Origin: an uncultured virus (IMG/VR IMGVR_UViG_3300027754_000050)
Taxonomy: Duplodnaviria > Heunggongvirae > Uroviricota > Caudoviricetes
DNA: 64,000 nucleotides
Direction: 5' to 3' (one strand)
Virus record (IMG/VR): IMGVR_UViG_3300027754_000050
Shown here: positions 6,934 to 64,000 of the stretch, piece after piece
How positions within the stretch are numbered: position 1 is the first letter of the stretch
Layout: each line of letters starts with the position of its first letter
Program-made: the position numbers and the translations under genes
Notes under the pieces: model-generated
Database searches by the model: none
What the model was told of the DNA's origin: nothing
Seen by the model: the letters and a program-made list of their open reading frames with translations, nothing else

Positions 6934-6941
6934 GTTAGATT

Positions 6942-7046: not shown

Positions 7047-7086
7047 TTTGTTTTTCGATTAAAACGCTACATTTTCATGCTTAATT

Positions 7087-7113
7087 TAATATAGTGTATA
7101 ATTTTGATTTTTT
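7087..7113 (-). promoter_or_regulatory. 27-bp putative ncRNA promoter, repeated at 35012-35038
   Basis: 26/27 identical to the sequence upstream of tRNA-Thr. Confidence 0.6.
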
Positions 7114-7123
7114 AACTAATGGG

Positions 7124-44575: not shown

Positions 44576-44576
44576 A

Positions 44577-46355: not shown

Positions 46356-46878
46356 TTTGATTCAGCATATTACATGCGTATTCTGCATCCTTTTTTACAT
46401 TAATATTATTTTTTGTCCAATTTTTTAAATGACCAAAAAACAAGTGGCAATTAAAACTTTTGTTTTCGCACAAACTAACCAAATTGTCTAAGTCTAATTC
46501 TTTTTCAGGATGGGAATGAACAGGAAAAATATGATGCGGAACGACATTGTATAAACTACCGCAAACAACGCAACTCGGATTTTTTTCAAGATGTAGTATT
46601 CTAATTTTTCTCCATTTAGAACTTCTTGGAGAAGATAAAATTGAAACATCAACTTTAAGCCTGCTGCGCAAAGTCAAAATCCCAAAAAACAAAATGATCA
46701 GACCTATTCCGGGAATTGGTAAAAATAAAAAATAAACTCCAAAAACAATCAAAAACAATCCGATTGAATAAACCAGAAATTTAGGAACCCATTTAAAACA
46801 ACAGAACAGGTAACATATTGGTCCAATGAAAAGAGCAGTCAATATAACTAAAGATGCTAAAATAGCTAAGCTCGCCAT
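46339..46878 (-). CDS. HNH endonuclease with N-terminal membrane segments
   Basis: RSSKWRKIR...CVVCG...HHIFP...NLVSLCE...CHL..GH. Confidence 0.75.
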   Translation of the reverse strand: MASLAILASLVILTALFIGPICYLFCCFKWVPKFLVYSIGLFLIVFGVYFLFLPIPGIGLIILFFGILTLRSRLKVDVSILSSPRSSKWRKIRILHLEKNPSCVVCGSLYNVVPHHIFPVHSHPEKELDLDNLVSLCENKSFNCHLFFGHLKNWTKNNINVKKDAEYACNMLNQNEKNN

Positions 46879-47927: not shown

Positions 47928-47929
47928 GT

Positions 47930-49171: not shown

Positions 49172-49620
49172 AAACCAGCCTGTTTTAGCTTCGTATAATA
49201 TTTAGGATCTTCTCTCAAATGTGCGACACAAATTTTCAAAACATCACCCAAATTATGAGCTACAGCAGTGTCGCCTAACGTATGCTCTTTTTCTGCTGTC
49301 ATTCCCATTTCCAACTCATTAATATCCAAGCTTAATATTTTAACATTGTACTTTTTGGAAAGATGGTCCAAGCGTGAAGCAAATGAAGACATACTGTCTT
49401 TTCCTGCCTGTACATCTGATGAGACTTCTTTTAGTCTTAGCCAATGCGGTTGCCGTTCCAATGGAATAGGATTTTGACTACTCTCAGGTTCGTGTCTAAG
49501 CTTAGGTTTAGATCGTGGTTTCTTTCGAACCGGTGGATTCAATACCGCACCACTTAAATAAGGCCCCTCATCAAGGCTGTTTGCAGCTTTATTTTTAAGC
49601 CATTCTTTGAATTTATTCAT
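49168..49620 (-). CDS. CTS-bearing protein, DUF5661-like
   Basis: MNKFKEWLK; GMTAEKEHT...AHLREDPKYYTKL. Confidence 0.65.
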   Translation of the reverse strand: MNKFKEWLKNKAANSLDEGPYLSGAVLNPPVRKKPRSKPKLRHEPESSQNPIPLERQPHWLRLKEVSSDVQAGKDSMSSFASRLDHLSKKYNVKILSLDINELEMGMTAEKEHTLGDTAVAHNLGDVLKICVAHLREDPKYYTKLKQAGL

Positions 49621-49677
49621 ATTTACACTCACTTATTGGTATGACAATAGAAATATATATAGGGAATAGGGTCTATT

Positions 49678-50334
49678 TTGATTAAAATTAAATACAAGAT
49701 AAAAGAGGTTTTTCCAAATGTATTTGCTGTTGTTGTTAAAAATGACTATCAAAGAGGTATGCTTTTTTGCAAAGTACAGGAATTTTACGAGTGCAGTAAC
49801 AAAAAATTCATTAACAAAAGATTTTCTATCTGGGAATTTCAACAATGGTACGCAAAAAAAAATAAAGGAGTATTCTCATACCCTAGTGACTATGAAGGAT
49901 TTAATATTCCTCTAGAAATAGCCGTAAAATTTCAAAGAATTAATGCTATAGAAACACCATATGATAAAAAAATAAAAGAAATAACCGACACTATTTCCAG
50001 TACTAGAAAAAAAGCATATATCATAGGAGTTAAAAGCCTGCGAAGTAGAGTTTTTAAACATGAATTATGTCATGCTTTGTATTTTTTAAATAAAGACTAT
50101 AAAAAAGATACGGATAAAATAACCAATTCATTAAACAAAAAAGAATATAAAAGATTTGTTGCAAATCTTAAAAAATTAGGATACAATAAAAATGTTATCA
50201 AAGATGAAATACAAGCCTATATGGCTACAGATATTGATGAAAGAGTTTTAAAAAATATTTGCAATAAAAATAGTTTGCATAAAAGATACAAATCAGTGCT
50301 ATCAAAATATTCCAAAAAAAGGAAAAAAAAATGA
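49678..50334 (+). CDS. HExxH metalloprotease-like protein
   Basis: KHELCHAL...DEIQAY. Confidence 0.6.
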   Translation: MIKIKYKIKEVFPNVFAVVVKNDYQRGMLFCKVQEFYECSNKKFINKRFSIWEFQQWYAKKNKGVFSYPSDYEGFNIPLEIAVKFQRINAIETPYDKKIKEITDTISSTRKKAYIIGVKSLRSRVFKHELCHALYFLNKDYKKDTDKITNSLNKKEYKRFVANLKKLGYNKNVIKDEIQAYMATDIDERVLKNICNKNSLHKRYKSVLSKYSKKRKKK

Positions 50335-51590
50335 AACCAGAAAGCTTGATGATGACATACGGATATAAACCGTCCCTGTCAGAAGGTGCTTTGAAATGCC
50401 CAATATTTCAAACTTCAACTTTTGTTTTTAATTCCGCAATGGAAGGTAAAAGATTTTTTGAACTAGCATATGGAATAAGAGAAAAAGACAAAGGAGAAGA
50501 ATTAGGATTAATATACAGCAGATTAAATAATCCAGATTTAGAAATACTTGAAAACCGGCTGTGCTTATGGGACGAAGCAGAAGATTGTGCGGTTTTTGAA
50601 AGCGGAATGTCTGCTCTCTCTACAGCTTTTTTAGAATTCACAACTCCAGGTGATTTATTTGTTTACTCCCGACCAGTATACGGAGGAACAGACCATTTCA
50701 TTAATCACTTCTTAAAGAAAATACAAGTCGAAGCAGTAGGTTTCTATGCCACAGACTCTAAAGAACAAATTATTAAAAGAATTGAGGAAACAGGAAAAGC
50801 AAATCGACTGACAATGATCCATATAGAAACTCCTGCAAACCCCACTAATGTTTTAATTGATATTGAAATGTGTGCGGAAATTAAAAAACACTTCTCTACA
50901 CAAGAAAAACCAGTTATTCTTTCTGTGGATAATACTTATATGGGACCTATTTGGCAGCACCCTTTGAAACATGGAGCAGATTTGGTTGTTTATTCTGCAA
51001 CAAAATATATCGGTGGACATTCTGACGTTATTGCCGGTGCATGCTTGGGATCAAAAAATCTTATCGGAAAAGTAAAATCATTAAGAACATTCTTGGGAAA
51101 CATGGCAGGACCATGGACAGGATGGCTACTCATGAGAAGCTTGGAAACATTAAAAGTCAGAATGGAACAACAAGATAAAAACGCACAAAAAGTAGCACTT
51201 TATTTGAAAAATCATCCAAAAATAGAAAAAGTTTACTACTTAGGATTTATAAATGACGGAAACGATCAAAAAGAAAAAAATATTTATGAAAAACAATGCA
51301 CATCAGCAGGTGCAATGATCTCTTTCGATATTAAAGGCGGCGAAAAAGAAGCATTCCAATTCTTAGACGCTTTAAAACTAATCAAACTAGCAGTGAGTTT
51401 AGGAGGAACAGAAAGCTTGGCAGAACACCCGCAAACAATGACGCATGCAGATGTATCAGAAAAAGATAAGCAATTAATGAATATATCCGAGAAATTAGTA
51501 AGACTATCTGTCGGAGTCGAACATTATAGCGACATAATAGAAGATATAGAACAAGCACTTTCTTGCGTTGACACAATAATTACATTCTGA
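50331..51590 (+). CDS. Methionine gamma-lyase / cystathionine gamma-synthase family PLP enzyme
   Basis: PIFQTSTF, YSRLNNP, ETPANP, VDNT, SATKYIGGHSD, AVSLGGTESL, VRLSVGVE. Confidence 0.93.
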   Translation: MKPESLMMTYGYKPSLSEGALKCPIFQTSTFVFNSAMEGKRFFELAYGIREKDKGEELGLIYSRLNNPDLEILENRLCLWDEAEDCAVFESGMSALSTAFLEFTTPGDLFVYSRPVYGGTDHFINHFLKKIQVEAVGFYATDSKEQIIKRIEETGKANRLTMIHIETPANPTNVLIDIEMCAEIKKHFSTQEKPVILSVDNTYMGPIWQHPLKHGADLVVYSATKYIGGHSDVIAGACLGSKNLIGKVKSLRTFLGNMAGPWTGWLLMRSLETLKVRMEQQDKNAQKVALYLKNHPKIEKVYYLGFINDGNDQKEKNIYEKQCTSAGAMISFDIKGGEKEAFQFLDALKLIKLAVSLGGTESLAEHPQTMTHADVSEKDKQLMNISEKLVRLSVGVEHYSDIIEDIEQALSCVDTIITF

Positions 51591-51603
51591 TACAATTACA
51601 GAT

Positions 51604-52287
51604 ATGAAAATTTTATTGGTTCTATTGATACTACTGCTTTGCACTGCCTTTGCTGTGCCTGTCTGCTTTACTTACCATATCGCAAGCACACAAGATACTA
51701 CGTTTTTTATAATAGAAAAGCCATTTATAGAAATATTCAAAAAATTAGCAAATAAAAATTCATTAGAAAAAATTATACAACAAAACAACGACACACTCGT
51801 TGATAAAAATTGGGAATATCTCAATGTTGAAATAATACGAATCCTAAAGCCAAAATCATGGACGATAAATGGCAAAATGAACTTTACTGTTGATACTAAT
51901 AATGACTTCAAAACAAGACTACACTTCAATCAGTTCGTAGATTACTCACAAGGAATACTACAAATAATAACAAAACTAGAAACACCTGATAAAAATATAC
52001 TAATTTGTGAAAAAACAATACAAATAATAGACCAAATAAATAATACCAAGGTAAACGTAAAAACAACACTAGTTGTTAAAAAATATATACCAAAATACTT
52101 TGTTAAACTTATGGATGATAAAGTAAAAGAACACAACTTAAAAGATATTCAAAAAATAAAAGATAATTTAATCAATATAACCAAGAATAAAGACGCACTC
52201 TTTAGCATTCCAATACAAAAAATTAACTACGAATTACAACATGTAAGCCCAGTCACAGGATTATACATAATCGAACCAACTTGGTGA
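51604..52287 (+). CDS. Hypothetical protein with signal/anchor
   Basis: Hydrophobic N-terminus; operon context. Confidence 0.6.
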   Translation: MKILLVLLILLLCTAFAVPVCFTYHIASTQDTTFFIIEKPFIEIFKKLANKNSLEKIIQQNNDTLVDKNWEYLNVEIIRILKPKSWTINGKMNFTVDTNNDFKTRLHFNQFVDYSQGILQIITKLETPDKNILICEKTIQIIDQINNTKVNVKTTLVVKKYIPKYFVKLMDDKVKEHNLKDIQKIKDNLINITKNKDALFSIPIQKINYELQHVSPVTGLYIIEPTW

Positions 52288-52300
52288 AACTAGGAAATAT

Positions 52301-52567
52301 ATGCCATACATCACTACAGAAAATAGAAAAAAATATGATGTGCAAATCAATCAATTAATTGATCAAATAGCAAGTAACAATGCCACAGATGGAGATTTAA
52401 ATTATATTATCACAAAACTACTGCACTCAGCATTTAATCTAAAAGACCCAAAGTATACAAGAATAAATACGGCAATTGGAGTGCTTGAATGTTGTAAACA
52501 AGAACTCTATAGAAAAATTGCAGCACCATATGAAATTGAAAAATGCACAATTAACGGCGATGTATGA
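52301..52567 (+). CDS. Conserved phage protein (DUF6899-like)
   Basis: MPYI...GDLNY.IT...GVLECCKQELYR....PYE..K...NGDV. Confidence 0.75.
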   Translation: MPYITTENRKKYDVQINQLIDQIASNNATDGDLNYIITKLLHSAFNLKDPKYTRINTAIGVLECCKQELYRKIAAPYEIEKCTINGDV

Positions 52568-54075
52568 ATAATTATGACGTTATTATCGTAGGAGCAGGTC
52601 ACAACGGGCTAATAGCTGCTTGCTACTTGGCAAAAGAAGGAAAAAAAGTCCTAATTTTAGAAGCTAATAACGAAGTAGGAGGTGCAACAAAATCAAATAT
52701 GCCCTTTAAAGGATTGAAAGCAATAATTTCTAGCTACTCATACTTGGTTTCATTAATGCCAAGTCAAATCATATCAGACCTAAAGTTAAATTTTGAAACA
52801 ATACCAAGACGAATATTATCGTATACGCCATACCTAAAAAACAACGAATACAATGGACTATTAGTTCATCGAAACTCAAACGAAAACACAGAATCATTCC
52901 AAAAACTAACAGGATCAAATAAAGAATCAGAAAATTGGAGTAAATTCTACGAAAGAATAAATGAATTCGCAAGCATCGTACAACCTACTCTTTTAAAACC
53001 ACTTCCTACAAAAAGTGAATTAAAAAATAAAATGCCTGCCGATACTTGGAATATGCTCGTTGAACAACCTATCGGAAAAACACTAGATGAACAGTTCAGT
53101 GATGATATAATAAAAGGACTGATCCTTACAGATGGACTCATAGGAACATTCTGCTCAGCATATGAAATGCAAGCAAACATATGCTTTCTATACCACATAA
53201 TAGGAGGTGAATGGAAAGTACCAAAAGGAGGAATGGGATCATTAGTAGAGGAACTGTATCAACTCGCCATAAAATCAGGTGTTGATATTAGGGTAAACTC
53301 TAAAGTTAAAGCAATAACACAAAATGAAGACTTTGTAACAGCAACCCTAGAAAATAACGAAACATTAAAAGGAAAATTCCTGCTGTCGAATGCAGCACCA
53401 CAAATATTGGAACGATTACTCGGAGAAAATATACAAGAAACTCTCGAGGGATCTCAAGTAAAAATCAATATGCTACTTAAAAAATTACCAGAGTTTAAGT
53501 CAGGAATTAATCCAAAAGATGCATTTGTAGGAACACTGCACATCAATGAAAGCTTCTCACAACTCCAAAAAGCATACACCGAAGCAAAAAATGGAGTGAT
53601 ACCAGAAGAACTACCTCTTGAATTATATTGCCACTCACTATCTGACCCCTCTGTTATAAACAATGACACAAACCAGTCTTTAACAGCATTCATTCTGCAC
53701 ACACCTGCTAAACTATTTGATGAAAACAACGAAGAAACTAAAAGAATAATCAAAAATAAGGCTCTTGATGCAATAAATCAATACTTAGTAGAACCAATTG
53801 AAAATTGCTTTGAAATAGATCAAAACGGAAACCAGTGCTTAGAAATTAAATCCCCTATCGATTTACAAAAAGAAATTGCACTGCCTCGTGGAAATATATT
53901 CCATAAAAATTTATCTTTTCCTTTTAAAGACGATGATTCAAATGCAAAATGGGGCGTCGAAACAAAACATCCAAGAATATTCATATGCGGTGCAGGAGCA
54001 ATTCGAGGAGGAGGAGTAAGCGGAATACCAGGACACAATGCAGCAATGGCAATACTAGAACAAGAACAAATCTAG
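52564..54075 (+). CDS. Phytoene dehydrogenase-like FAD oxidoreductase (PYROXD2-type)
   Basis: YDVIIVGAGHNGLIAACYLA, PKGGMG, GNIFH, GGGVSGIPGHNAA. Confidence 0.9.
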   Translation: MNNYDVIIVGAGHNGLIAACYLAKEGKKVLILEANNEVGGATKSNMPFKGLKAIISSYSYLVSLMPSQIISDLKLNFETIPRRILSYTPYLKNNEYNGLLVHRNSNENTESFQKLTGSNKESENWSKFYERINEFASIVQPTLLKPLPTKSELKNKMPADTWNMLVEQPIGKTLDEQFSDDIIKGLILTDGLIGTFCSAYEMQANICFLYHIIGGEWKVPKGGMGSLVEELYQLAIKSGVDIRVNSKVKAITQNEDFVTATLENNETLKGKFLLSNAAPQILERLLGENIQETLEGSQVKINMLLKKLPEFKSGINPKDAFVGTLHINESFSQLQKAYTEAKNGVIPEELPLELYCHSLSDPSVINNDTNQSLTAFILHTPAKLFDENNEETKRIIKNKALDAINQYLVEPIENCFEIDQNGNQCLEIKSPIDLQKEIALPRGNIFHKNLSFPFKDDDSNAKWGVETKHPRIFICGAGAIRGGGVSGIPGHNAAMAILEQEQI

Positions 54076-54077
54076 CA

Positions 54078-54106
54078 TTGACAATACATACTAAAAGGAA
54101 TAAATT
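54078..54106 (+). promoter_or_regulatory. Sigma70-type promoter
   Basis: TTGACA-N17-TAAATT. Confidence 0.55.
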
Positions 54107-54112
54107 AATCAA

Positions 54113-54547
54113 ATGAGCGAAACTTATAACATACTGAATTTAAAGAAATATGCCGAAAGCATCAGAAAAAATGCATCAATATCAATATTTCAAAATGAAA
54201 AAATACTAAACATTGAAGGCTTAACACTACCAAACACAATAAATGGTTATATTACGATAAAACAAGTATGCTTTATAATTAAAAATCATGTAGTAGGATA
54301 TAGTAGTGAAAATAAACCAATCATCGATGAACATGGCTACAATAACGCTTTTGAAGAAGTTAGAGGCTGGATCGCTAATTGTATTTTTTCTAAACTAGCA
54401 GCAAATAATATTCTTGAGTGCAACTGGGATAATGAAAAAGAAGAAATGATGTTTTGGATAGAGAAAGAAAAAGAAGAATTTTTGCCGCTACTTCCCAAAT
54501 GGATAGTGAAATGGCTCCAATCAAACGATGTTGACAATTCTGCTTAA
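54113..54547 (+). CDS. Hypothetical protein
   Basis: 144-aa ORF behind a promoter. Confidence 0.6.
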   Translation: MSETYNILNLKKYAESIRKNASISIFQNEKILNIEGLTLPNTINGYITIKQVCFIIKNHVVGYSSENKPIIDEHGYNNAFEEVRGWIANCIFSKLAANNILECNWDNEKEEMMFWIEKEKEEFLPLLPKWIVKWLQSNDVDNSA

Positions 54548-54559
54548 ATATGGTATGTT
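54531..54559 (+). promoter_or_regulatory. Sigma70-type promoter for uvsE (near-leaderless)
   Basis: TTGACA-N17-TATGTT with extended TG; ATG follows at 54566. Confidence 0.55.
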
Positions 54560-54565
54560 GTGGGA

Positions 54566-55555
54566 ATGGGAATTAGATTCGGACTTTGCTGTATATTTCG
54601 TGATGAACCAATTAAGTTTAGGACGACCACAGCATCTTACGTTTTAAAAATGGATCGTTCCGATGGTCTTCTTAAAATAAGCGATTTATGCAAAACTAAC
54701 GCAAGCAGCCTGCAAGAAGCATTACAGTACTGCCATAAGAATGATATTAATAACTTCAGAGTAAGCAGTAACATTCTTCCATTAAAAACACATCCTGTTC
54801 TAGGATATAATGTTGAAGATCTGCCCGATGGGGAAAATATTATCAACCTTTTTAAGGGTGCTGGAGAATATGCCAAATCCAAAAATATAAGAACCTCTTT
54901 TCATCCTAGTCAATTCGTGGTTTTAAACTCTCAAAAGCCACAAGTTGTTGTGCAATCGCTACAGGAAATTGAGTATCAAGCCGAAGTTTCTGAGTGGATT
55001 AATGCTGATGTTGTTAATGTTCATGGAGGAGGGGCATACGGCGATAAAATAAAGGCACTATCTGATTTCTCACATGCCGTAGATAGACTTTCTGAAAGAG
55101 CCAGAAGTAAATTAACAATAGAAAATGACGATAAAACATATACTCCATCTGATATTCTTCCATTATGTAAAGATCTAGGAATACCATTAGTATACGATGT
55201 GCATCACCATAGATGTAATAAAGATGGAATTTCAATCGAACAGGCGACACAAGCAGCATTAGCAACTTGGAATAGGGAACCTATGTTTCATATTTCCAGT
55301 CCAATTGAAGGATGGAGTGGAAAAAAACAGAACAGCCATCATGACTTCATCAATATAGAAGACTTTCCAGAGTGCTGGCTTGATCTAAACATTACTGTTG
55401 AGGTAGAAGCTAAAGCTAAGGAAGTTGCCATATTGCAACTCATGGCACAGTATGGCACAATAAAAAGAACGGTCGGAACGACCGGATTAGCCGCTTGCCA
55501 TGATGTAAGACCCGCTTTTAGTGGGCTGTACTTCGGAGCGGAAACTCACCTTTAA
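54566..55555 (+). CDS. uvsE: UV damage endonuclease UvsE, C-terminus extended through the omega-like element
   Basis: FRVSSNILP, HPSQFVVLNS, HGGG, IENDD, YDVHHH, HISS, EVEAKAKE. Confidence 0.92.
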   Translation: MGIRFGLCCIFRDEPIKFRTTTASYVLKMDRSDGLLKISDLCKTNASSLQEALQYCHKNDINNFRVSSNILPLKTHPVLGYNVEDLPDGENIINLFKGAGEYAKSKNIRTSFHPSQFVVLNSQKPQVVVQSLQEIEYQAEVSEWINADVVNVHGGGAYGDKIKALSDFSHAVDRLSERARSKLTIENDDKTYTPSDILPLCKDLGIPLVYDVHHHRCNKDGISIEQATQAALATWNREPMFHISSPIEGWSGKKQNSHHDFINIEDFPECWLDLNITVEVEAKAKEVAILQLMAQYGTIKRTVGTTGLAACHDVRPAFSGLYFGAETHL

Positions 55556-55573
55556 CAGGGGTTGGTAGTTCAT
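55469..55573 (+). ncRNA. TnpB omega-RNA-like element, copy 2
   Basis: ACGGTCGGAACGACCGGATTAGCCGCTT...GAGCGGAAACTCACC...GGTAGTTCAT; encodes TVGTTGLA, like TnpB C-termini. Confidence 0.7.
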
Positions 55574-55611
55574 AATTTGAAGCACCTTTTTTCGTCCACT
55601 CTGAAGCCAGA

Positions 55612-56217
55612 CTACATCCTATCGATCTGATTCTGGAACTTCTCCCACTCGGCGTCGGACAAACCCTCCGGCCTCTTGACATCCTTGCCGACCCTCTTGA
55701 CATAAGTGTCCACGGTCTCGCCCGGCAAGGACGAGGCTCTCGTATTCGCATCCGAGCTATCTAGTGGTTTTGGGTAGTCCAGTGCTTTCCAGAGAGCTTT
55801 CTGATAGCCTACGATCCTCTTCCCTCTGCTATTTCTTACGGGTACGGTTCTCTTGAATCTGGCCTCTCTCAGTATCTCTTCGAATTCATGGAAGTTCATA
55901 GCACTATTTAAATTTTCGGCTCTTCGTTGTTCCCCAAATGGCGATGGAGAATTCATATCTTTTTCGGCTGCTTTTTGTGCTTCAGGTGGAAGATCTTCCC
56001 AATCCATTATGTGCAGTCCCAGTTGTTTGGCATTTGGCATGCTAGACAAGTAAGAGAGTCTTGCTAAAGGCGAATTTGCCTGCCACAGTCCTGCAGCCGC
56101 TGCGTTCGGTTTTTTTAGATAATGAATAGGCGGTGTAATTTGCCTGCCTGTAGCGACAGGTGATTGTCCAGTTGTCATGTTTTCTTTTAAAGACAACCAA
56201 TCTTGAAATGTTTTCAT
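55612..56217 (-). CDS. Hypothetical protein with CTS-like N-terminus
   Basis: MKTFQDWLSLKE after AGAGG RBS; 3' part is GC-rich. Confidence 0.7.
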   Translation of the reverse strand: MKTFQDWLSLKENMTTGQSPVATGRQITPPIHYLKKPNAAAAGLWQANSPLARLSYLSSMPNAKQLGLHIMDWEDLPPEAQKAAEKDMNSPSPFGEQRRAENLNSAMNFHEFEEILREARFKRTVPVRNSRGKRIVGYQKALWKALDYPKPLDSSDANTRASSLPGETVDTYVKRVGKDVKRPEGLSDAEWEKFQNQIDRM

Positions 56218-56304
56218 AATTTTTCCTCTTTTTATATATAGCATCTTATGCGAAAAAACCCAGAAGATAAAAATTCTGCACCTAAGTCTACGGATCGCAT
56301 CCTA

Positions 56305-56333
56305 TTGCAGCTTATGGCACAGTATAGTACAAT
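56305..56333 (+). promoter_or_regulatory. Sigma70-like promoter for omega copy 3 and the tRNA cluster
   Basis: TTGCAG-N17-TACAAT; paralogous TTGCAA-N17-CACAAT at 55433-55461. Confidence 0.55.
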
Positions 56334-56340
56334 AAAAAGA

Positions 56341-56444
56341 ACGGTCGGAATGACCGGGTTAGCCGCTTGCCCTGATGTAAGACCCGATTTTATCGGGCTG
56401 TACGTTAAAGCGGAAACGCACCTTACACAAGGTGAGCAATTCAT
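56341..56444 (+). ncRNA. TnpB omega-RNA-like element, copy 3, abutting tRNA-Asn
   Basis: Same scaffold, ending CAATTCAT immediately before tRNA base 1. Confidence 0.7.
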
Positions 56445-56516
56445 TCCGAGATAGCTCAACGGTAGAGCGAGGCGCTGTTAACGCTTAGGTTGGGGGTTCA
56501 AATCCCTCTCTCGGAG
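56445..56516 (+). tRNA. tRNA-Asn(GTT), no encoded CCA
   Basis: TCCGAGA/TCTCGGA acceptor; anticodon loop CTGTTAA; GGTTCAAATCC. Confidence 0.9.
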
Positions 56517-56580
56517 CTTTTTATTAATATTTCGTATCGTCTCCAAAGCGGCACGTTGCAATTCCATATTTCCATGTTTT

Positions 56581-56663
56581 GGTGAGTTTCCCGAGCGGTC
56601 AAAGGGGTCAGACTGTAAATCTGATGGCTTATGCCTTCGCAGGTTCGAATCCTGCACTCACCA
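56581..56663 (+). tRNA. tRNA-Tyr(GTA), no encoded CCA
   Basis: GGTGAGT/ACTCACC acceptor; CTGTAAA loop; long variable arm; GGTTCGAATCC. Confidence 0.93.
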
Positions 56664-56680
56664 CTTAAGAGGAGATTAGT

Positions 56681-56872
56681 ATCTGTACACAAGATGAACC
56701 AGACGATTATCGCAATACAAAAGAAAAGAAAGATTTCTTCGTAGAGAATGGATTGATTGTCTTTACAGAGGATTATCATCTAAAACGAGGCTATTGCTGC
56801 GGCAGCGGATGCAGGTTTTGCCCTTATACGCCTAAACACAAAAAAGGCAACACAGTTAGAAAAGAAATCTAA
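56681..56872 (+). CDS. DUF5522-like small Cys-rich protein, non-ATG start
   Basis: ENGLIVFTEDYHLKRGYCCGSGCRFCPY; GAGGAG followed 6 nt later by in-frame ATC. Confidence 0.65.
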   Translation: MCTQDEPDDYRNTKEKKDFFVENGLIVFTEDYHLKRGYCCGSGCRFCPYTPKHKKGNTVRKEI

Positions 56873-57483
56873 CCGGGATCGTATCCCCATTCATGAACGC
56901 TATTACCGTCTGTAAATAGTTCTTTAGCTCGTACAGTTTTAGATAAAATCTTATAATTACCATCTAAACTAGCCGCTCCATGAAGTACCGCATATTGTCG
57001 ATTGATTGTAACCCAATCACCCGGATTGATTGTAATTTTATTTTCTCTTTTACTTTCAAGCTGCGTTATTTCTTTTTCTAGGTGTTCAATGAATTTGTTC
57101 TTATCCCGCCCCAGCTTTGCATACAATTCACTTGCAAACTTATCCTTTGAATAAATTGGTGCATAGCCAAATTTATTCGCATAATAGATTAAGCTCGCAT
57201 AGTACTTAATTTTTTTATTAGTTTCCTTATTAGCATCTGGAACTGCTCTAAATATCTTAACGGATAAATTTGGTTTGCCTTTTGCAGATCTTATAATGCT
57301 TATTGATTCGCCATCGAACGGTGAGCCATCGCCATAGTACAGTACGCCTTTATCAGAATAGATATCATCGGGATAAGTGTTCGTTAAGTCGTGAAGCGGA
57401 GCATCTTCTTTGTTAGGAGCCGTGTGAGTTCCTTTGTAATCGTCGTTCTCTAGCCAAATTAACATTTCGTAAAAATTTTTCAT
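56869..57483 (-). CDS. ADP-ribosyltransferase-fold-like protein with CTS-like N-terminus
   Basis: KIFRAVP...INPGDWVT...YA..HG...EWGY, an R-S/T-E-type pattern; MKNFYEMLIWLE. Confidence 0.55.
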   Translation of the reverse strand: MKNFYEMLIWLENDDYKGTHTAPNKEDAPLHDLTNTYPDDIYSDKGVLYYGDGSPFDGESISIIRSAKGKPNLSVKIFRAVPDANKETNKKIKYYASLIYYANKFGYAPIYSKDKFASELYAKLGRDKNKFIEHLEKEITQLESKRENKITINPGDWVTINRQYAVLHGAASLDGNYKILSKTVRAKELFTDGNSVHEWGYDPG

Positions 57484-57488
57484 GCATA

Positions 57489-58229
57489 TTATATACGAGA
57501 CAATGCAGATTTTAGTATTGTGTTGTGATGTGCAAAAGCCAAATTTGGTAGCTCATTAACCGAATACCACCCCTTAAGACCCTTTTCGATCATAGAGGGA
57601 CTACCAGTTGCTTGAGAAGCATCATCTCCAAACTTAAAGTTCTGCACCTCGCCATCAGGAACTTCATAGATATAAGCCCAAGTTTTAACATTCTTCTCTC
57701 TACGATCAGAGTTGCTTGCATCAAATTCACCCGTGTAAACCAAGCTGGAAATATTAACAGCAGCACGGGTTTCTTCGCCTAATTCCCTAGCGGCTGCTTT
57801 TGGAGCAACTGTTGTTGGGTCTGGAGGATTGTTTGCCGAGAATCCATCTTCCTTATTATCAAAAAAACCTCCAGGTATCGCAAGTCCTTTAGGATCTTTA
57901 TTGCGATTTATCAAGTAAACAGCATTATTGCTTCTGCTATAAGGCACACAGTCAACGGCTCTGTTTTCTGCGTATGTGATTATATTTTTGTCTCCTTGTT
58001 TAGCGTATTCAAAGTACTTTACCCAAGGAGGATTTAGTTTTTGGTTTATAGGTCCGTTTCCAATATTAGTAACATTGTTTTGCATAGAAACGTAGAGTGG
58101 CTCGCTAAGATCATCGGCGGTCACCTTAATAAAATCACCTTCAATTGTTACAAGGCTATAAGGACCCCAATACACTTTTGACGAAGCGGTGTTTTCGCTC
58201 ATTAATTTGTAAAATTTATAAAAATTCAT
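57489..58229 (-). CDS. Nudix hydrolase (ADP-ribose pyrophosphatase-like) with CTS-like N-terminus
   Basis: AIPGGF...AAARELGEET Nudix box; GDDA; LAFAH; MNFYKFYKLMSE. Confidence 0.85.
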   Translation of the reverse strand: MNFYKFYKLMSENTASSKVYWGPYSLVTIEGDFIKVTADDLSEPLYVSMQNNVTNIGNGPINQKLNPPWVKYFEYAKQGDKNIITYAENRAVDCVPYSRSNNAVYLINRNKDPKGLAIPGGFFDNKEDGFSANNPPDPTTVAPKAAARELGEETRAAVNISSLVYTGEFDASNSDRREKNVKTWAYIYEVPDGEVQNFKFGDDASQATGSPSMIEKGLKGWYSVNELPNLAFAHHNTILKSALSRI

Positions 58230-58382
58230 AACAAGATATATATACTCTGAAACGCTAAAGTAAGTGGGGCGATAATTTGAAATGAAATGGCCGATTTTAT
58301 CTATAAGTAATGGCAGGACTAGTATTGTTTAGTATATTAGGTTATTTGGCTAGTATAAGAATTTATTATTGGTGGAATAGAT

Positions 58383-58709
58383 ATGGGAAAGAAGGAGGCG
58401 GCGAACATGAACGATGCGAATGAGAGGTCTGTTGCATCGGCTGGTTCTATTGCGATGCTGGTGATGGTTCTCGCTCTCGCACTCGCACTGATCGCCGGGT
58501 GTGCTGCCCACTCGCCGCCGCAGCCAACGCCAGACATTCGCACTTGCGAAGGCTGCGGGACACGGTGGGATACGCCGAATCCAGAGCCGAATCCGAAGCC
58601 GATCAAACAATGCCCGAACTGCCCGATGACGCCGGAAGAATTTGAGCGGTTGAAGGAACAGTTGCGGAAATCCAATAACACTTCTGAAATAGAAAAAATA
58701 AGGATATGA
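58383..58709 (+). CDS. GC-rich putative lipoprotein with CxxC pairs
   Basis: Hydrophobic stretch, lipobox LIAGC, CEGC and CPNC. Confidence 0.65.
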   Translation: MGKKEAANMNDANERSVASAGSIAMLVMVLALALALIAGCAAHSPPQPTPDIRTCEGCGTRWDTPNPEPNPKPIKQCPNCPMTPEEFERLKEQLRKSNNTSEIEKIRI

Positions 58710-58710
58710 A

Positions 58711-58989
58711 ATGAAAAAATTCCACGAATGGCTGAAAATAAGAGAAAGCACAAGTTGGTCGCCCGATAGAAAAAAAATAAAAAGAAAAAGTGGACTTCAA
58801 GCTCAATGCCGCAGATGCAATAAAATTTACAATGTAGCAAATTTGGGTGATTTTTTTGCTGGACAATCAAAATGCCCCGACTGTGGTGGACAGGGAGACA
58901 TAACCGGAAACAGTAAGCCGGAAGGAGTAAAGAACGATTCGTATCCGCACTGGCACAGACTGTCTCGCCTGCCGGGACAAAGAGGTTGA
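58711..58989 (+). CDS. Zinc-ribbon protein with CTS-like N-terminus
   Basis: MKKFHEWLKIRE; CRRC...CPDC. Confidence 0.7.
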   Translation: MKKFHEWLKIRESTSWSPDRKKIKRKSGLQAQCRRCNKIYNVANLGDFFAGQSKCPDCGGQGDITGNSKPEGVKNDSYPHWHRLSRLPGQRG

Positions 58990-58993
58990 TCGT

Positions 58994-59092
58994 TTAAACG
59001 CCTTTTAAATGCCTCGCCCACAAGATAATAATTGTCGGGACCAGTATCTCTATGGCAATTATTCCACCCAATATTATTTTCAATTCAAACAT
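58994..59092 (-). CDS. 32-aa single-TM peptide
   Basis: MFELKIILGGIIAIEILVPTIIILWARHLKGV. Confidence 0.45.
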   Translation of the reverse strand: MFELKIILGGIIAIEILVPTIIILWARHLKGV

Positions 59093-59152
59093 GAGATCCC
59101 CAGAAATACAGATGAAAGGAATCGAACCTTCTGATTCTAAAGACATACCAAA

Positions 59153-59281
59153 TCAAGATGCAGCATTAACCTCTGGATGAGATATTATCAACCAATCTTT
59201 AAAACCAATTAAAACAGGCTGTCCACTAATGTTTAAAGCCATTCTAATGCCACTTTTCTTCTTTTTCTTCTTCTTTTTCAT
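59153..59281 (-). CDS. 42-aa poly-Lys peptide
   Basis: MKKKKKKKKSGIRMALNISGQPVLIGFKDWLIISHPEVNAAS after AAAGGA RBS. Confidence 0.45.
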   Translation of the reverse strand: MKKKKKKKKSGIRMALNISGQPVLIGFKDWLIISHPEVNAAS

Positions 59282-59317
59282 TTTTTTCCTTTTAAAAATA
59301 ATCAATCTTATCTATCC

Positions 59318-59345
59318 TTGACAATAAATTTAAATACTATAAAAT
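59318..59345 (+). promoter_or_regulatory. Sigma70-type promoter
   Basis: TTGACA-N16-TAAAAT upstream of the HD gene. Confidence 0.55.
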
Positions 59346-59399
59346 ATTCTTTCAAAATAATACATAATCTATTACAGACGCTAAAAAATGAGTAAAATC

Positions 59400-60002
59400 A
59401 TGAAAAGTTTTAAAGAATGGAGAATGATAAAAGAAAGTATTTCTAATTATTCCGGAGATGGATCGGATGAACACGTACATGATTTTGCCAAAGAAAAACA
59501 TGACCAAACAGGTAAAAAAAGAAAACTATCTGGACTTCCTTATTTCACACATCCAAACAATGTTGCGAATCTATTGAGAACCGCAGGTGCAAGCCCAGAA
59601 GTGGTAATGGCTGGATACCTACATGATACAACAGAAGACGCAGGAGTTGATCCGCAGGAAATTGAAGCCCAGTTTGGATTAAGAGTGTCCCAATTAGTGG
59701 CTGGATCTTCAGAACCAGATAAAGGAGCAAGTTGGGATGAACGAAAACAACACACTATTGATTATTTAAGTTCAATTGACGATCCAGAAATATTACAAGT
59801 TGTAGTTGCTGATAAACTCGATAATGTAACAGATACACATATTAATGGCGGAGAAGGGATCTGGTCTAAATTCAACGCACCATACGAAAAACAAAAATGG
59901 TACTACTCTACATTAGCCGATATATTCCTGGACAAAATACCAGAATTCAGCCTCTCGAGAAGATATAAAAATATGGTCGATAAGGTTTTTATAAATCGAT
60001 AG
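59400..60002 (+). CDS. HD-domain small alarmone hydrolase (Mesh1/SAH-like) with CTS-like N-terminus
   Basis: FA..KH...RK.SG.PY..HP..VA; LHDTTED; ADKLDN; W..F....KQ.WYY; MKSFKEWRMIKE. Confidence 0.9.
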   Translation: MKSFKEWRMIKESISNYSGDGSDEHVHDFAKEKHDQTGKKRKLSGLPYFTHPNNVANLLRTAGASPEVVMAGYLHDTTEDAGVDPQEIEAQFGLRVSQLVAGSSEPDKGASWDERKQHTIDYLSSIDDPEILQVVVADKLDNVTDTHINGGEGIWSKFNAPYEKQKWYYSTLADIFLDKIPEFSLSRRYKNMVDKVFINR

Positions 60003-60112
60003 CATTTTACATATCTACACCATGATGCCACACACTATAGAATATTTACTGTGGACCTGTATTGGTTTTTGGTACCTTACATTTTTATATCTATTTTATA
60101 TCGAGAACTATT

Positions 60113-60325
60113 ATGAAAGACAAGATTCCACTGAAGTATGACACTCTAATATCTATTGAGGATGTTATGGCTAAAAGCCCTGACGCCTTAATTGTAGATT
60201 ATATCAAAGAACTACACGCTCTCATACTATATCAGAGAACACTCATAAAAGAACAAAGAAGCGAAATTGTAGCTACGAAACATAAAAGTGCTTGGACTCA
60301 TTATTCAACTAAAGATTATCCGTGA
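60113..60325 (+). CDS. Hypothetical protein
   Basis: MKDKIPLKY..., short coiled coil. Confidence 0.5.
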   Translation: MKDKIPLKYDTLISIEDVMAKSPDALIVDYIKELHALILYQRTLIKEQRSEIVATKHKSAWTHYSTKDYP

Positions 60326-60581
60326 AGCATCCCTTTTTGTAGTCCCAATGTCTGTTGTCATGTATTGTCATTACAACACTAAATCCCAAAAGTCCACACC
60401 CCACGTTTAGTCCAGCATGATCACCGCTAGTAGTAAAACGTAGTGATGCCTCAAATATTGTATTCGTTTTCATTATTTGGAATTCCCAACTCTTGTGCTG
60501 TGTTATACGACCACCAGTGTTGTATATGTTACCCCACCGATTACTGAATGGATGCCACAGGTGAAAGTTTAAATTAATCAT
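60309..60581 (-). CDS. Hypothetical phage protein
   Basis: DHAG...LLG...IHDNRHWD. Confidence 0.6.
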   Translation of the reverse strand: MINLNFHLWHPFSNRWGNIYNTGGRITQHKSWEFQIMKTNTIFEASLRFTTSGDHAGLNVGCGLLGFSVVMTIHDNRHWDYKKGCFTDNL

Positions 60582-60619
60582 TGCGGTTCCAAAGAAAAAA
60601 AGTTAATAAGATCCATGAA

Positions 60620-60874
60620 CTACGGTAAATTCTTTATTGCCACTTCTATTTCACTATAGTGATAATTAAGCTCTGCTTCTTTAAGATGTTTATTCGTAGG
60701 GTGATCACTGTATAGTTCTTTTAACTGAATGTACCTTTCTAGATTATAATTCCTAATTAGCTCTGCTTTTTGTAGTTCTAACTGTTTCAATTCATTAGAA
60801 CCATATTGTATCTTATAGAAATAACAAAAACAGAGCATCATGTTCAAAAAGAAGATTATCAGTATTCCTTTCAC
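60620..60874 (-). CDS. Hypothetical membrane-anchored protein
   Basis: N-terminal TM helix then coiled coil. Confidence 0.5.
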   Translation of the reverse strand: MKGILIIFFLNMMLCFCYFYKIQYGSNELKQLELQKAELIRNYNLERYIQLKELYSDHPTNKHLKEAELNYHYSEIEVAIKNLP

Positions 60875-61045
60875 ATTTCACCCTTATTCTATGAAAATCA
60901 TGCCCGTATGTCCACTGCACGGAAGATTGCATCCATGTATACCTAATTATTAGACCTTTAACTAAAAATAAAACAAAATTTTGAGCAGTTGATGCGAACT
61001 CCAGAATCTGGTACAGTCGTCTTTCCTTTAACACCCTAAAAGAGC

Positions 61046-61273
61046 ATGAAAAGAACACTAACATTCGATGAATTGGTGAAATTTGGACAATCTCATAATT
61101 ATACTGTTGTAAAAGACGCATCAAATGGTATCAATTGGCATTATAATCGAAAGTGTAGTGTACTTAGTGTTTGCGATACTATTAATGAGGTTTTTGATGC
61201 AATTTCATGTGATATTAATCTTAAGAAGAATCCAAGCGGCGAAAGGATCAAAGTAATTTTTAATAATGGATAA
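61046..61273 (+). CDS. Hypothetical protein
   Basis: Overlaps the start of the sigma gene. Confidence 0.5.
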   Translation: MKRTLTFDELVKFGQSHNYTVVKDASNGINWHYNRKCSVLSVCDTINEVFDAISCDINLKKNPSGERIKVIFNNG

Positions 61274-61760
61274 TAATGATCTTCTGTCCTATTGGATAAA
61301 AACACACTCTTATAGCCTGCACCAAATTGCTTATAAATTAGTGGGGAACCGACATAGCACAGAAGACATCGTGCAGGAAACGTTTAAATCCGCGTGGTAT
61401 AGCATAGATTCTTACGATAAGACTTTAAATGAAAAAGGATGGTTAACCACTATCCTAAAAAGAAGAGTGGTGGATTATTGGAGAAAGAAAAAATCTAGGG
61501 GCAATAATATCCCGAATGGTTTAGGATACACAATAGTTGCTAAGGATATAAAAGACAGTAGTAGCTTAGAATACTCCCAAAAAATAAACGACAGTTTAAA
61601 TAGCATCCATCCACGACTCAAAGAAACATTCTTATGTGTCGCAATAGAAGGATTAACTCACAAAGAAACCGCATCTAAACTCGGAATTCCTGTTGGAACT
61701 GTATTAAGCAGAGTGTACCGTGCCAAAGAACAGTTGAGAGAATGCCTAAATTCAATATGA
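61266..61760 (+). CDS. ECF-family RNA polymerase sigma factor
   Basis: TEDIVQETFKSAW...WLTTI...DYWRK (region 2); GLTHKETASKLGIPVGTVLSRVYRAK (region 4). Confidence 0.92.
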   Translation: MDNNDLLSYWIKTHSYSLHQIAYKLVGNRHSTEDIVQETFKSAWYSIDSYDKTLNEKGWLTTILKRRVVDYWRKKKSRGNNIPNGLGYTIVAKDIKDSSSLEYSQKINDSLNSIHPRLKETFLCVAIEGLTHKETASKLGIPVGTVLSRVYRAKEQLRECLNSI

Positions 61761-61927
61761 TGCGAATAAAAAAAATAACCCAGAATTTTTTTCTGGTCTA
61801 TACCGTTTTATAATTTTAAGATGGTATACCAATAACAATAAGAAAAACATTAAAAATCTTTGAAACAGTATAGTAAAAAATAAATCACAAGACAATCAAA
61901 AATAAGACAGTCATTGCGGTGGGGGTT

Positions 61928-62110
61928 AGGTACAATTAAAAAATATATTTTAATTGTACCTACCATAATTTTTGTATTATTATTTTTGTTACTATTTTTT
62001 TGTTACTATTTGTTACTATTTTTTTTGTTACTATTTTAGTAACAACAATAGTAACAACAATAGTAACAACCGCAGTGTACCCTGTTACTATTTTTAGTAA
62101 CAGGGTACAC
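61928..62110. repeat. Iteron-like GTTACTA repeats and two palindromes
   Basis: 14-bp inverted repeat at 61928-61961; TGTTACTATT x4; TAGTAACA x3; perfect 16-bp-arm palindrome at 62075-62110. Confidence 0.85.
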
Positions 62111-62118
62111 ACTAGCGA

Positions 62119-62550
62119 TCATTCTACTTCAAATACAAGATGATCTTCCCGCACAACGAAACAAGGGGGTGCAGACTTAGTAGCAGCCGATGGAGACTGG
62201 TGAGCCAGCCACTCCTCTTTCGTAGCCACCACTCCATCCACAAACCGCTCGACCACTAGCTTGCCCCCCTCGACCGGATACAGTCTGTAGTACCTTGCCC
62301 CATTGTGAGTGATCGTGTACGGGAAGTGTTCCCATTCGCCCCATGATAGGGGCTGGACTTCGCCACGTTCACCGCTGGCGATTCCTTCCTTGACACTTGC
62401 GAGGTTGGCAAAGTCTATGCCAGCCCGAAACACGCCTACCGTAGCCTTCTCCAGTACAGTGCCCTTGCTTGCCTTGCAAGGAGTCTGAACCGTCCGGAAG
62501 GATGCCTTAATGAATTGTCCTTTGCAGGACAGGAACGTAGACAACTTCAT
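62119..62550 (-). CDS. Hypothetical GC-rich cassette gene
   Basis: GGAG RBS within the repeated leader. Confidence 0.75.
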   Translation of the reverse strand: MKLSTFLSCKGQFIKASFRTVQTPCKASKGTVLEKATVGVFRAGIDFANLASVKEGIASGERGEVQPLSWGEWEHFPYTITHNGARYYRLYPVEGGKLVVERFVDGVVATKEEWLAHQSPSAATKSAPPCFVVREDHLVFEVE

Positions 62551-62559
62551 GGTTTCATT

Positions 62560-62618
62560 CTCCGGTGATACCAGTGGCAGTAACCGCTGCCACTACACCC
62601 TATAAGGTACAATTAAAT
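62560..62618 (-). promoter_or_regulatory. Cassette leader repeat 1 (AATTGTACC box, hairpin, RBS)
   Basis: TTAATTGTACCTTATAG...AGTGGCAG-CGGTTA-CTGCCACT-GGTATCACCGGAG. Confidence 0.8.
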
Positions 62619-62658
62619 CATAACAATAAATATAATTGTACCTAACCCATACCGCCGG

Positions 62659-62689
62659 TAACGGAAGGGTTTGTGTTCCCCTTCCGTTG
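62659..62689 (-). terminator. Post-stop hairpin repeat
   Basis: AACGGAAGGG-N9-CCCTTCCGTT, without a U-tract. Confidence 0.5.
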
Positions 62690-62694
62690 TCCGA

Positions 62695-63093
62695 TCAGCC
62701 GCACCTCACGGCCCCAGTGCCGTGGCACTCATCGCACATGCTATCGTTCCCACTGCAATAGCACTGACTCCATGCATTCGCATTCGCAGCCGGAGCGTGG
62801 TACTCCGGAATCCAATTGTATCCATTGCAGTCCTCGTTGGTTTCCCAACGACCGCAATCGGCAGGGGCTGGAGAGCGGTAGGCCGCTCCGTTCCATTCCA
62901 CGCTTGCAGCGTCATCGCAGGCATCGTCATCGCAGGCATCGTCGCACGGTGCGGCGACTCTGGCCGCAAGTTCTTCAACGTTATCATTCCAGTCTGCGGG
63001 CTCGCCGCAGTCAACGCACACCTCTCTAAAAGTGTCTTTCATGTCGACACTAGCGCCGCAACTTCGACAGATACTGAAATTGAAATTATTCAT
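62695..63093 (-). CDS. GC-rich Cys-rich cassette gene (DDAC repeats, CxxCxGxG)
   Basis: CRSC, CVDC, CDDACDDDACDDA, CDECHGTG; GGAG RBS. Confidence 0.7.
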   Translation of the reverse strand: MNNFNFSICRSCGASVDMKDTFREVCVDCGEPADWNDNVEELAARVAAPCDDACDDDACDDAASVEWNGAAYRSPAPADCGRWETNEDCNGYNWIPEYHAPAANANAWSQCYCSGNDSMCDECHGTGAVRCG

Positions 63094-63100
63094 CATATAG

Positions 63101-63157
63101 CTCCGGTGATACCAGTGGCAGTGTCTGCTGCCACTACCCTATAAGGTACAATTAAAT
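63101..63157 (-). promoter_or_regulatory. Cassette leader repeat 2
   Basis: Near-identical to 62560-62618 with a different hairpin loop. Confidence 0.8.
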
Positions 63158-63192
63158 TAAATTATAATAACTGGAAGGTTTGGTGTTCCCTT

Positions 63193-63531
63193 TTACAGAC
63201 CGCCGCCGGAGGTTTTCAGCCCATTGTATCCGATGGGCATTCCAATATCGTCGGCAATTATTTCTCCTGGTGCAACAACATCGTCCCTATCGAGAACCCG
63301 ATCAGCCACGACCGGATCGACGATAAATATTGTATCTTCGACTGGATCAGGCAAGCCAAATATTTCGTATACGGTTTCTACCAGCAGGAATGGTCCCAGT
63401 CCCCCGGCCATTTCAATGCTCGTGGTGACCACGTGAGCCACTGTGCCATCAGGAGGCAGCGGCCACATCTCTCCCAGCCCACCCCGAATTTTAAGAGTGG
63501 CTCCAGTTAGGTTCACAAACTTCAATTTCAT
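63193..63531 (-). CDS. Hypothetical phage cassette gene
   Basis: VNLT...GLPDP..DTIFIV...RDDVVAP...G..IG pattern; GAGGA RBS. Confidence 0.7.
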   Translation of the reverse strand: MKLKFVNLTGATLKIRGGLGEMWPLPPDGTVAHVVTTSIEMAGGLGPFLLVETVYEIFGLPDPVEDTIFIVDPVVADRVLDRDDVVAPGEIIADDIGMPIGYNGLKTSGGGL

Positions 63532-63540
63532 GAGATTTAT

Positions 63541-63630
63541 CCTCGATAACAGGTGGCAGGTACCGCTGCCACAACATAAGGTACAATTAAATTATAGTAA
63601 CCGGAAGGGTCTGGCGTTCCCCTTCCGTTG
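63541..63630 (-). promoter_or_regulatory. Cassette leader repeat 3 plus upstream post-stop hairpin
   Basis: GGAAGGG-N10-CCCTTCC, then TATAATTTAATTGTACC, then GTGGCAG-CGGTAC-CTGCCAC. Confidence 0.8.
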
Positions 63631-63634
63631 TGAA

Positions 63635-63871
63635 TCATGCCTGCTGGGGCAAGGGCAGCAGGGCGTAAGCCTCAGGCAGGCTGTACTCACCGCTAATAGC
63701 CTCGGAGATGCTGTCGATGTTGCCGTGGAGACTTACGGCATATCCGCCGTTCGTCTTCACAATGTTCAAGAGGTCATTCGCCTCTTGAACGTCGTACGCG
63801 ACACCGATGTGGCAATCGCCACTAACTCCCGCCTCCAGCTTGCCGCCGATACCGTAAATCATGATTTTCAT
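63635..63871 (-). CDS. Hypothetical GC-rich cassette gene
   Basis: GGAG RBS in leader repeat 4. Confidence 0.7.
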   Translation of the reverse strand: MKIMIYGIGGKLEAGVSGDCHIGVAYDVQEANDLLNIVKTNGGYAVSLHGNIDSISEAISGEYSLPEAYALLPLPQQA

Positions 63872-63878
63872 CGTTCTT

Positions 63879-63929
63879 CTCCGTTGATAACAGGGGACAG
63901 TATCCTATGCCACTATAAGGTACAATTAA
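63879..63929 (-). promoter_or_regulatory. Cassette leader repeat 4 (degenerate hairpin)
   Basis: TTAATTGTACCTTATAGTGGCA...CTGTTATCAACGGAG. Confidence 0.7.
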
Positions 63930-64000
63930 TTCCTCAAGCCCCTCTGGACAAGATAATATGTTCTGAGAACTGTTCTAGCAGTTCCCGTTTGAGTCGTGCC

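Follow-up and report, generated by a model that had tools for sequence, protein, structure and literature searches.

The window analysed here, a 64,000-nt stretch of DNA from an uncultured virus of the Caudoviricetes, carries on its plus strand a promoter-like site, an RNA scaffold and genes for tRNA-Asn and tRNA-Tyr, in that order (Table 1). The gap between the scaffold and tRNA-Asn is 0 nt, as the TTCAT that closes the scaffold is followed directly by base 1 of the tRNA. All four elements had been described in the original prediction, and inspection of the sequence together with ARAGORN and Rfam confirms the promoter-like TTGCAG-N17-TACAAT, the scaffold, the exact junction with tRNA-Asn and the tRNA-Tyr behind it, with small corrections. 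Of the 12 consensus positions of a sigma-70 promoter the promoter-like site matches 8, although the phage has its own sigma factor and these rules may not apply. Because the threshold of our promoter scan was 9 of 12, the site is absent from the list produced by that scan. The phage-encoded protein, of the sigma-70 family, has regions 2 and 4 only (61266-61760, plus strand), and its presence means that sigma-70 consensus calls may not fit all genes of the phage. BLAST comparison shows that the promoter-like site is common to the scaffold described above, hereafter copy A, and to a second scaffold, copy B, which lies 870 bp upstream. The copy B site in the close relative L003 (TTGCAA-N17-TACAAT, with TG before the -10 element) passes the sigma-70 scan at 9 of 12. 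Transcription of copy A would start at about 56339-56341.

Two further observations concern the surroundings. Directly 3' of tRNA-Tyr is a frame with a DUF5522 domain (56678-56869, plus strand; Pfam 4.9e-18), which has no ATG, GTG or TTG ahead of the domain and shows instead an AGGAG with an ATC 6 nt later; this arrangement suggests that the frame uses a non-canonical start and is co-transcribed with the tRNAs. Elsewhere in the window, a 3442-aa ORF on the minus strand (18824-29152) has no Pfam match at all and adjoins baseplate and tail genes (gp25, Tail_P2_I, Phage_base_V).

Table 1. Features of the locus and of the two further scaffold copies in the window; R1 and R2 are the covariance models described in the text.
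Feature	Position	Strand	Remarks
Promoter-like site of orphan copy A	56305-56333	+	TTGCAG 56305-56310, 17-nt spacer, TACAAT 56328-56333
Copy A, complete omegaRNA scaffold, 107 nt, without tnpB and without left end	56338-56444	+	R1 112.8 bits, R2 81.4 bits
Loop GAAU of stem-loop 1 in copy A, 5' strand of the pseudoknot	56348-56351	+	Pairs with AUUC 56439-56442
TTCAT, right-end boundary motif of the transposon, directly abutting tRNA-Asn base 1	56440-56444	+	
tRNA-Asn (GTT), occupying the omegaRNA guide position	56445-56517	+	ARAGORN; Rfam tRNA 69.9 bits
tRNA-Tyr (GTA), second gene of the presumed transcript	56581-56664	+	ARAGORN; Rfam tRNA 58.6 bits
Copy B, promoter-like site and scaffold	55433-55573	+	TTGCAA-N17-CACAAT (55433-55461), scaffold 55466-55573; R1 113 bits, R2 88.5 bits
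Copy C, scaffold between two minus-strand ORFs, without a convincing promoter of its own	6942-7049	-	R1 99.9 bits, R2 92.5 bits
Polymorphic segment	55574-56426	.	ORF 55612-56244 (ORF210), promoter and most of copy A; in L003, 1443 bp with tnpB and right-end fragments

BLAST and the covariance model R1 both find exactly three copies of the scaffold in the window, the next match scoring 12 bits. A second model, R2, was built from five tnpB-linked copies on other phage contigs and contains no window sequence. Since R2 gives high scores to copies A, B and C, with copy A the lowest of the three, the label 'omega-like' that the scaffold had been given from its sequence was correct. In L003, L006, L008, L029 and L030, bona fide tnpB genes end in the same RNA at their 3' side. 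Among the TnpB proteins recovered by IMG/VR pattern scans with the scaffold at the 3' end of the gene, those of L006 and L008 are 54% and 51% identical to the L003 protein, and those of L015 and L016 about 44.5%. Both L015 and L016 are complete IS605 elements with tnpA and tnpB; L008 lies on a contig of 458.8 kb and L016 on one of 279 kb. In L018 only the last 78 tnpB codons are retained, and L012, on a 458.8-kb phage contig, encodes no protein but has a left-end-like hairpin, resembling the PATEs discussed below. The scaffold is a genuine TnpB omegaRNA and the right end of an IS200/IS605 element, and its parent is an ISDra2-like member of that family.

The absence of any Rfam family for this stretch, at the gathering score or up to an E of 10, is what one would expect if it had no tie to transposons and were a small RNA or a structured leader of the tRNA whose likeness to omegaRNA arose by chance. 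That reading can practically be dismissed, however, as copy A reaches an E of 2.3e-15 against a model made from tnpB-linked copies only, and the same sequence is the 3' end of five tnpB genes. It is refuted by the tnpB-linked copies in L003, L006 and L008 together with the R2 score.

Several searches for further copies returned nothing. In GenBank phages, the blastn matches of 56200-56700 were confined to the tRNA part and megablast of 44000-64000 gave no match; no scaffold copy is present in the 595-kb phage genome LR756511.1. In IMG/VR, a first pattern that included stem-loop 1 had 0 matches, and a protein-seeded search with the L003 TnpB gave 0 confirmed relatives. Some candidates were rejected: none of eight loci from a pattern scan of genome contigs is a real member (the best, L024, scored 15 bits), three of five IMG/VR pattern matches (L005, L007 and L009) are chance matches without a TnpB, and L019, another IMG/VR pattern match, is likewise due to chance.

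Two side observations were made on the flanks of these copies. Copy C ends 8 nt ahead of the ATG of the ORF at 6397-6933 (6933-6949, minus strand), and the PATE-like copy L012 ends 4 nt ahead of an ATG (1600-1620); a start codon thus falls within the guide position of both, which may be due to chance or to mere tolerance of such sites. In L018 (1-1600 as stored), the flank that follows the TTCAT of the truncated element on the minus strand has by eye a tnpB-type coding look, which would suggest that one element is nested within another.

The region 56330-56444 is predicted to fold at -37.5 kcal/mol (z -3.48), and 0 of 200 shuffled sequences fold as well. Pairs were counted in an alignment of 10 sequences against a 35-pair structure that includes a pseudoknot helix, placed by analogy with ISDra2, where the last bases of the scaffold are described as pairing near its 5' end (PMC10097598). 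In this alignment 96% of the paired cells can form their pair, a share that falls to 28-46% once the partner is displaced by 1-3 columns, and the covariation score was reached by 0 of 500 shuffles. The pseudoknot helix (columns 11-14 with 109-112), in which the loop GAAC of stem-loop 1 meets the GUUC of ...AGUUCAU, is paired in 10 of 10 sequences. Its sole change on both sides occurs in copy A, where a C-G pair has become U-A. This compensatory double change indicates that the 5' and 3' ends of copy A belong together, and that copy A either is still a foldable omegaRNA or was one until recently. The change is a single event, whose probability of arising by chance is, by our own rough estimate, low, in the order of a few per cent. 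Copy A also stands apart from all nine other sequences at three bases just before TTCAT, reading GAGCAA where they read GGGTAG, and two of these private bases break basal pairs of the last hairpin (82-107 and 84-105).

Read from the minus strand, stem-loop 1 scores in both copy A and copy B, together with the A-run ahead of it, as an intrinsic terminator (56342-56356 and 55470-55484) with the sequence CGGTC.TTCCGACCG and then TTCTTTTTAT. The two terminator-like sites flank the minus-strand ORF at 55612-56244, and may insulate minus-strand transcription. In L006 and L008 the tail of the tnpB-linked copies is less rich in T.

The boundaries of the element could be read from L029 and L030, which are two insertions of one tnpA+tnpB IS605. 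We see similarity between them from a TTTAT and the left-end hairpin through GGGTAGTTCAT, and unrelated sequence beyond. As similarity is lost exactly after GGGTAGTTCAT, TTCAT is the right-end motif encoded by the transposon itself. It ends every aligned copy, including copy A, which closes with ...AATTCAT. An alternative in which TTCAT is the insertion target (TAM) had been suggested by L003, where a tnpB unit starts directly after the TTCAT of copy B; it was dropped because both insertions of the related full-length IS605 have TTTAT ahead of the left end, and TTCAT as the motif of the right end.

None of the copies in the window is accompanied by the rest of an element. A tblastn search of the window with four TnpB proteins gave matches at A, B and C alone, all of them confined to the last 28-41 codons; a TnpB domain was found in 0 of the 57 window ORFs scanned (64 kb); and short-word BLAST with the left ends of L029 and L030 found no left-end hairpin near 56200-56300, 55350-55430 or 7050-7120. 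A cognate tnpB overlapping or preceding the scaffold is thus absent at all three copies, whereas it is intact in L003 at the same locus, where it also has no recognisable left-end hairpin. As they lack a left-end hairpin, the window copies are right-end-only remnants and probably immobile. Beside copy B, a frame for a UvdE UV damage endonuclease (54560-55555, plus strand; Pfam 9.8e-60) continues through the scaffold; its last ~30 residues are a tnpB-derived frame (...AACHDVRPAFSGLYFGAETHL), so that the element seems to have taken the place of the gene's natural end.

A metagenome scan gave two contigs, L003 and L004, that are 98-99% identical to the window. L003 matches the window over 52482-55573 and 56427-57956, and the intervening 853 bp are replaced by 1443 bp. 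Directly after the TTCAT of copy B, L003 carries an ORF of 413 aa, and the same scaffold makes up the last codons of this ORF. This ORF encodes a TnpB (HTH_OrfB_IS605 7e-18, OrfB_IS605 4e-17, Cas12f1-like_TNB 4e-17) that aligns end to end with ISDra2 TnpB (8bf8/8h1j; E 5e-60). Its tRNA-Asn is directly preceded by AGGTGAGCAATTCAT, which is the last 15 nt of copy A, the three private bases included. The rest of copy A, its promoter and the minus-strand ORF210 are missing from L003; upstream of the 15-nt remnant lie instead a spacer of 41 nt, an incomplete right end (28-34.5 bits) and the tnpB unit. In the alignment with ISDra2, the L003 protein shows D, E and D at the positions that we take to be the catalytic residues. 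The 210-aa product of ORF210 itself has homologs that are unnamed or called 'hypothetical protein', and no match in Pfam or PHROGs.

Within L003, the partial right end and then the 41-nt spacer (1569-1655 and 1513-1568, minus strand) lie between the tnpB unit and tRNA-Asn. The right-end units of L003 each finish in TTCAT, and the sequences past each TTCAT are mutually unrelated. These stacks of right-end fragments possibly reflect tandem insertion after the right-end motif, or recombination.

The original prediction had made much depend on whether the junction varies among related phages. In the one relative found, L003, its position is the same, but the scaffold that adjoins it has been reduced to 15 nt; the junction is fixed and the scaffold body is dispensable.

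Contigs from three lake or freshwater DNA runs give further evidence of rearrangement. One run, X4, bridges the window-type arrangement over 55480-56325, and joints between scaffold copies were seen at 55575>56437 and 55560>55929 (X2 and X3) and at 56379>55520 (X4). The joint 55575>56437 fits the L003 arrangement, with 41 nt, 46 nt unaligned and then the rest, as we infer from the record lengths and from record 21 of X3. Copy B in the window is 93.2% identical to its counterpart in L003, compared with 98.5-98.6% in the flanks, and carries A-like patches that suggest gene conversion between copies. Copy C is identical in L004, where only 1-2 differences would be expected. The locus is best explained as a graveyard and recombination-prone hot spot of IS605-type elements. 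This agrees with a proposal that the original prediction had made in passing, that of an IS605 insertion scar at a tRNA gene, which proves to be the best fit: there is no tnpB and no left end, and the locus varies between near-identical phages. The scar reading is supported by a genuine omegaRNA and right end, by the lack of a tnpB in 64 kb and by the intact tnpB at this locus in the relative.

Our preferred reading, which we hold with moderate confidence, is that copy A is the remnant of an IS605 right end abutting tRNA-Asn, that its promoter drives the tRNA pair, and that RNase P frees the scaffold as a by-product leader. The nuclease gene and the left end are gone, and the right end with its promoter-like site is retained. 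TTCAT abuts base 1 of tRNA-Asn because the right end of the element came to lie there, and for the same reason the tRNA occupies the position in which any omegaRNA has its guide, namely the flanking DNA. As 0 nt leave no space for another promoter, tRNA-Asn would have to be transcribed through the scaffold, most simply from the promoter of the remnant, which would produce one transcript of scaffold, tRNA-Asn and tRNA-Tyr. RNase P has an established specificity for cleavage at tRNA base 1, and on this basis would be expected to cut at 56444/56445, giving the tRNA and a guide-less leader of ~105 nt. The tRNA-Asn is canonical by ARAGORN and Rfam, and base -1 is U. The leader would be mainly a by-product that still looks foldable as an omegaRNA and could bind a TnpB, and the remnant probably now serves mainly as the promoter and leader of the tRNA genes.

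The phage also encodes an enzyme of the CCA-adding type (PolyA_pol head domain). Its matched genes in Xanthomonas and Brevundimonas phages are annotated as tRNA nucleotidyltransferase, and its best phage match is in LR756511.1, at 39% identity. Such an enzyme fits the tRNA genes of the window, which have no encoded CCA. In the one metatranscriptome run considered (X24, contigs), a contig lies on 55952-56224, inside ORF210; the scaffold and tRNA-Asn are uncovered, which is no evidence either way. The depth on tRNA-Tyr in X24 comes from pieces of 37-53 letters with 2-6 differing letters and loose ends, and most likely stems from the tRNAs of other organisms.

On present evidence the element itself is an ordinary IS remnant. 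The promoter-like site kept in copies A and B, the pseudoknot double change in copy A and the identity of copy C in L004 nevertheless speak against passive decay alone. In a second reading, copy A would be retained, like B and C, as an extra guide-RNA gene for a TnpB encoded elsewhere in the phage or in co-infecting relatives. We regard this as unlikely. TnpB would have to load before RNase P acts, so that the first ~16 nt of tRNA-Asn serve as guide. Relatives with a TAM directly before tRNA-Asn, i.e. with an empty site, would then be cut, leading to homing of the element, and the 5' end of a tRNA would be hard to mutate away. An intact TnpB does exist at the same locus in a 98.5% identical phage, and yet no empty-site allele was seen, as every readable arrangement has a right-end remnant before the tRNA. 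The scaffold of copy A is complete, with a pseudoknot kept through a compensatory change, and both A and B have the promoter-like site; on the other hand, copy A departs from the consensus at three otherwise invariant bases beside the guide, and RNase P would take the guide off. The use in trans of protein-less omegaRNA elements has been proposed (Meers et al. 2023, 10.1101/2023.03.14.532601). Searches for targets gave no support for such a use here: at up to 3 mismatches in 16 nt, the window and the loci contain no second target for the tRNA-Asn guide, the locus itself being the sole match, and no guide has a second target in either. In IMG/VR the first 20 nt of tRNA-Asn had 0 matches and the first 16 nt had three, none of them in a tRNA.

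The guide-less leader is also the starting point of the decoy that the original prediction put forward by analogy with RNA anti-CRISPRs: once freed by RNase P, the scaffold would soak up the TnpB of competing elements or that of IS copies belonging to the phage itself. A complete scaffold and a junction so exact that cleavage would yield a clean guide-less 3' end are consistent with the idea, solitary CRISPR repeats do act as RNA anti-CRISPRs in phages (PMC10651486), and a decoy role has been speculated upon for circular archaeal omegaRNAs (PMC12558985). We nonetheless think it very improbable. The near-identical L003 has lost the scaffold body at this site, and as no more than 15 nt are left there, a decoy role conserved together with an intact scaffold is unsupported. 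Copies B and C, moreover, would not be trimmed by RNase P, because no tRNA follows them. A full-text literature search, covering main texts outside subscription journals, found no paper that reports an omegaRNA decoy or describes an omegaRNA-tRNA fusion.

A bolder version joins these ideas, and we consider it improbable. It holds that TnpB elements of phages preferentially settle and persist with their guide position on tRNA 5' ends, that the transcript at this locus has two fates, and that A, B and C form a working set of guides. If it were true, the tRNA end would offer a target that sister phages could not mutate, and hence a stable homing site, as well as a safe harbour, since RNase P tolerates any leader. 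Where RNase P came first, the transcript would give tRNAs and a TnpB-titrating scaffold; where TnpB came first, it would give a nuclease directed against competing phages whose tRNA-Asn alleles are flanked by a TAM. On this view the three orphan copies would make up the small set of guides used by a TnpB for which the phage population is polymorphic.

Several known systems help to place the preferred reading, that of a right-end remnant in front of a tRNA pair. Among the closest is the omegaRNA (or reRNA) of ISDra2 TnpB from Deinococcus radiodurans (Karvelis 2021, PMC8612924; Nakagawa 2023, PMC10097598; PDB 8bf8, 8exa, 8h1j). As in ISDra2, the last bases of the scaffold form a pseudoknot with the 5' stem-loop, and the end of the scaffold is the right boundary of the transposon; the length is ~107 nt, compared with 116 nt in ISDra2. 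Whereas the ISDra2 TAM is TTGAT, the boundary motif here reads TTCAT, and the left end of a related IS605 is preceded by TTTAT in two insertions. Copy A further differs from ISDra2 in that it has neither tnpB nor left end and that a tRNA gene takes the place of the ordinary flanking DNA behind it. PATEs are reported to 'often encode' omegaRNAs that require TnpB in trans (Meers et al. 2023, 10.1101/2023.03.14.532601). Copy A resembles them as a gene-less, complete omegaRNA that would depend on TnpB in trans; PATEs, however, keep both hairpin ends, whereas none is found at the left of A, B or C, and L012 has one.

Racrs are solitary repeat units in phages that mimic CRISPR repeats and inhibit Cas complexes (PMC10651486). 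Copy A resembles them in that a phage carries, on its own and behind a predicted promoter, the part of a guide RNA to which the effector binds. Inhibition is known for Racrs, whereas copy A is characterised from its sequence, derives from an IS of the phage population itself and is not conserved in a close relative. TldR proteins are nuclease-dead, TnpB-derived transcription factors with guide RNAs, found in part in prophages (PMC10705468), and TnpB itself has been reported as frequent in phages (PMC12607003). With TldR, copy A would share the exaptation of a TnpB-type guide RNA away from transposition, but TldR guide RNAs adjoin a protein gene and target promoters, and no protein gene is adjacent here. 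Unlike the nuclease-dead TldR, the L003 TnpB keeps the D, E and D that are presumably catalytic in ISDra2.

Orphan omegaRNAs are already known, and copy A is a clear and fairly ordinary example of one with an unusual junction. It provides a documented phage case of promoter-like, nuclease-less genes for TnpB guide RNA. Since the same locus holds an intact tnpB in a near-identical phage, gain, loss and recombination can be traced within one natural population. Engineered tRNA-guide RNA arrays exist, and the junction between scaffold and tRNA is their natural counterpart. The exact junction would allow the competition of RNase P and TnpB for one transcript to be tested.
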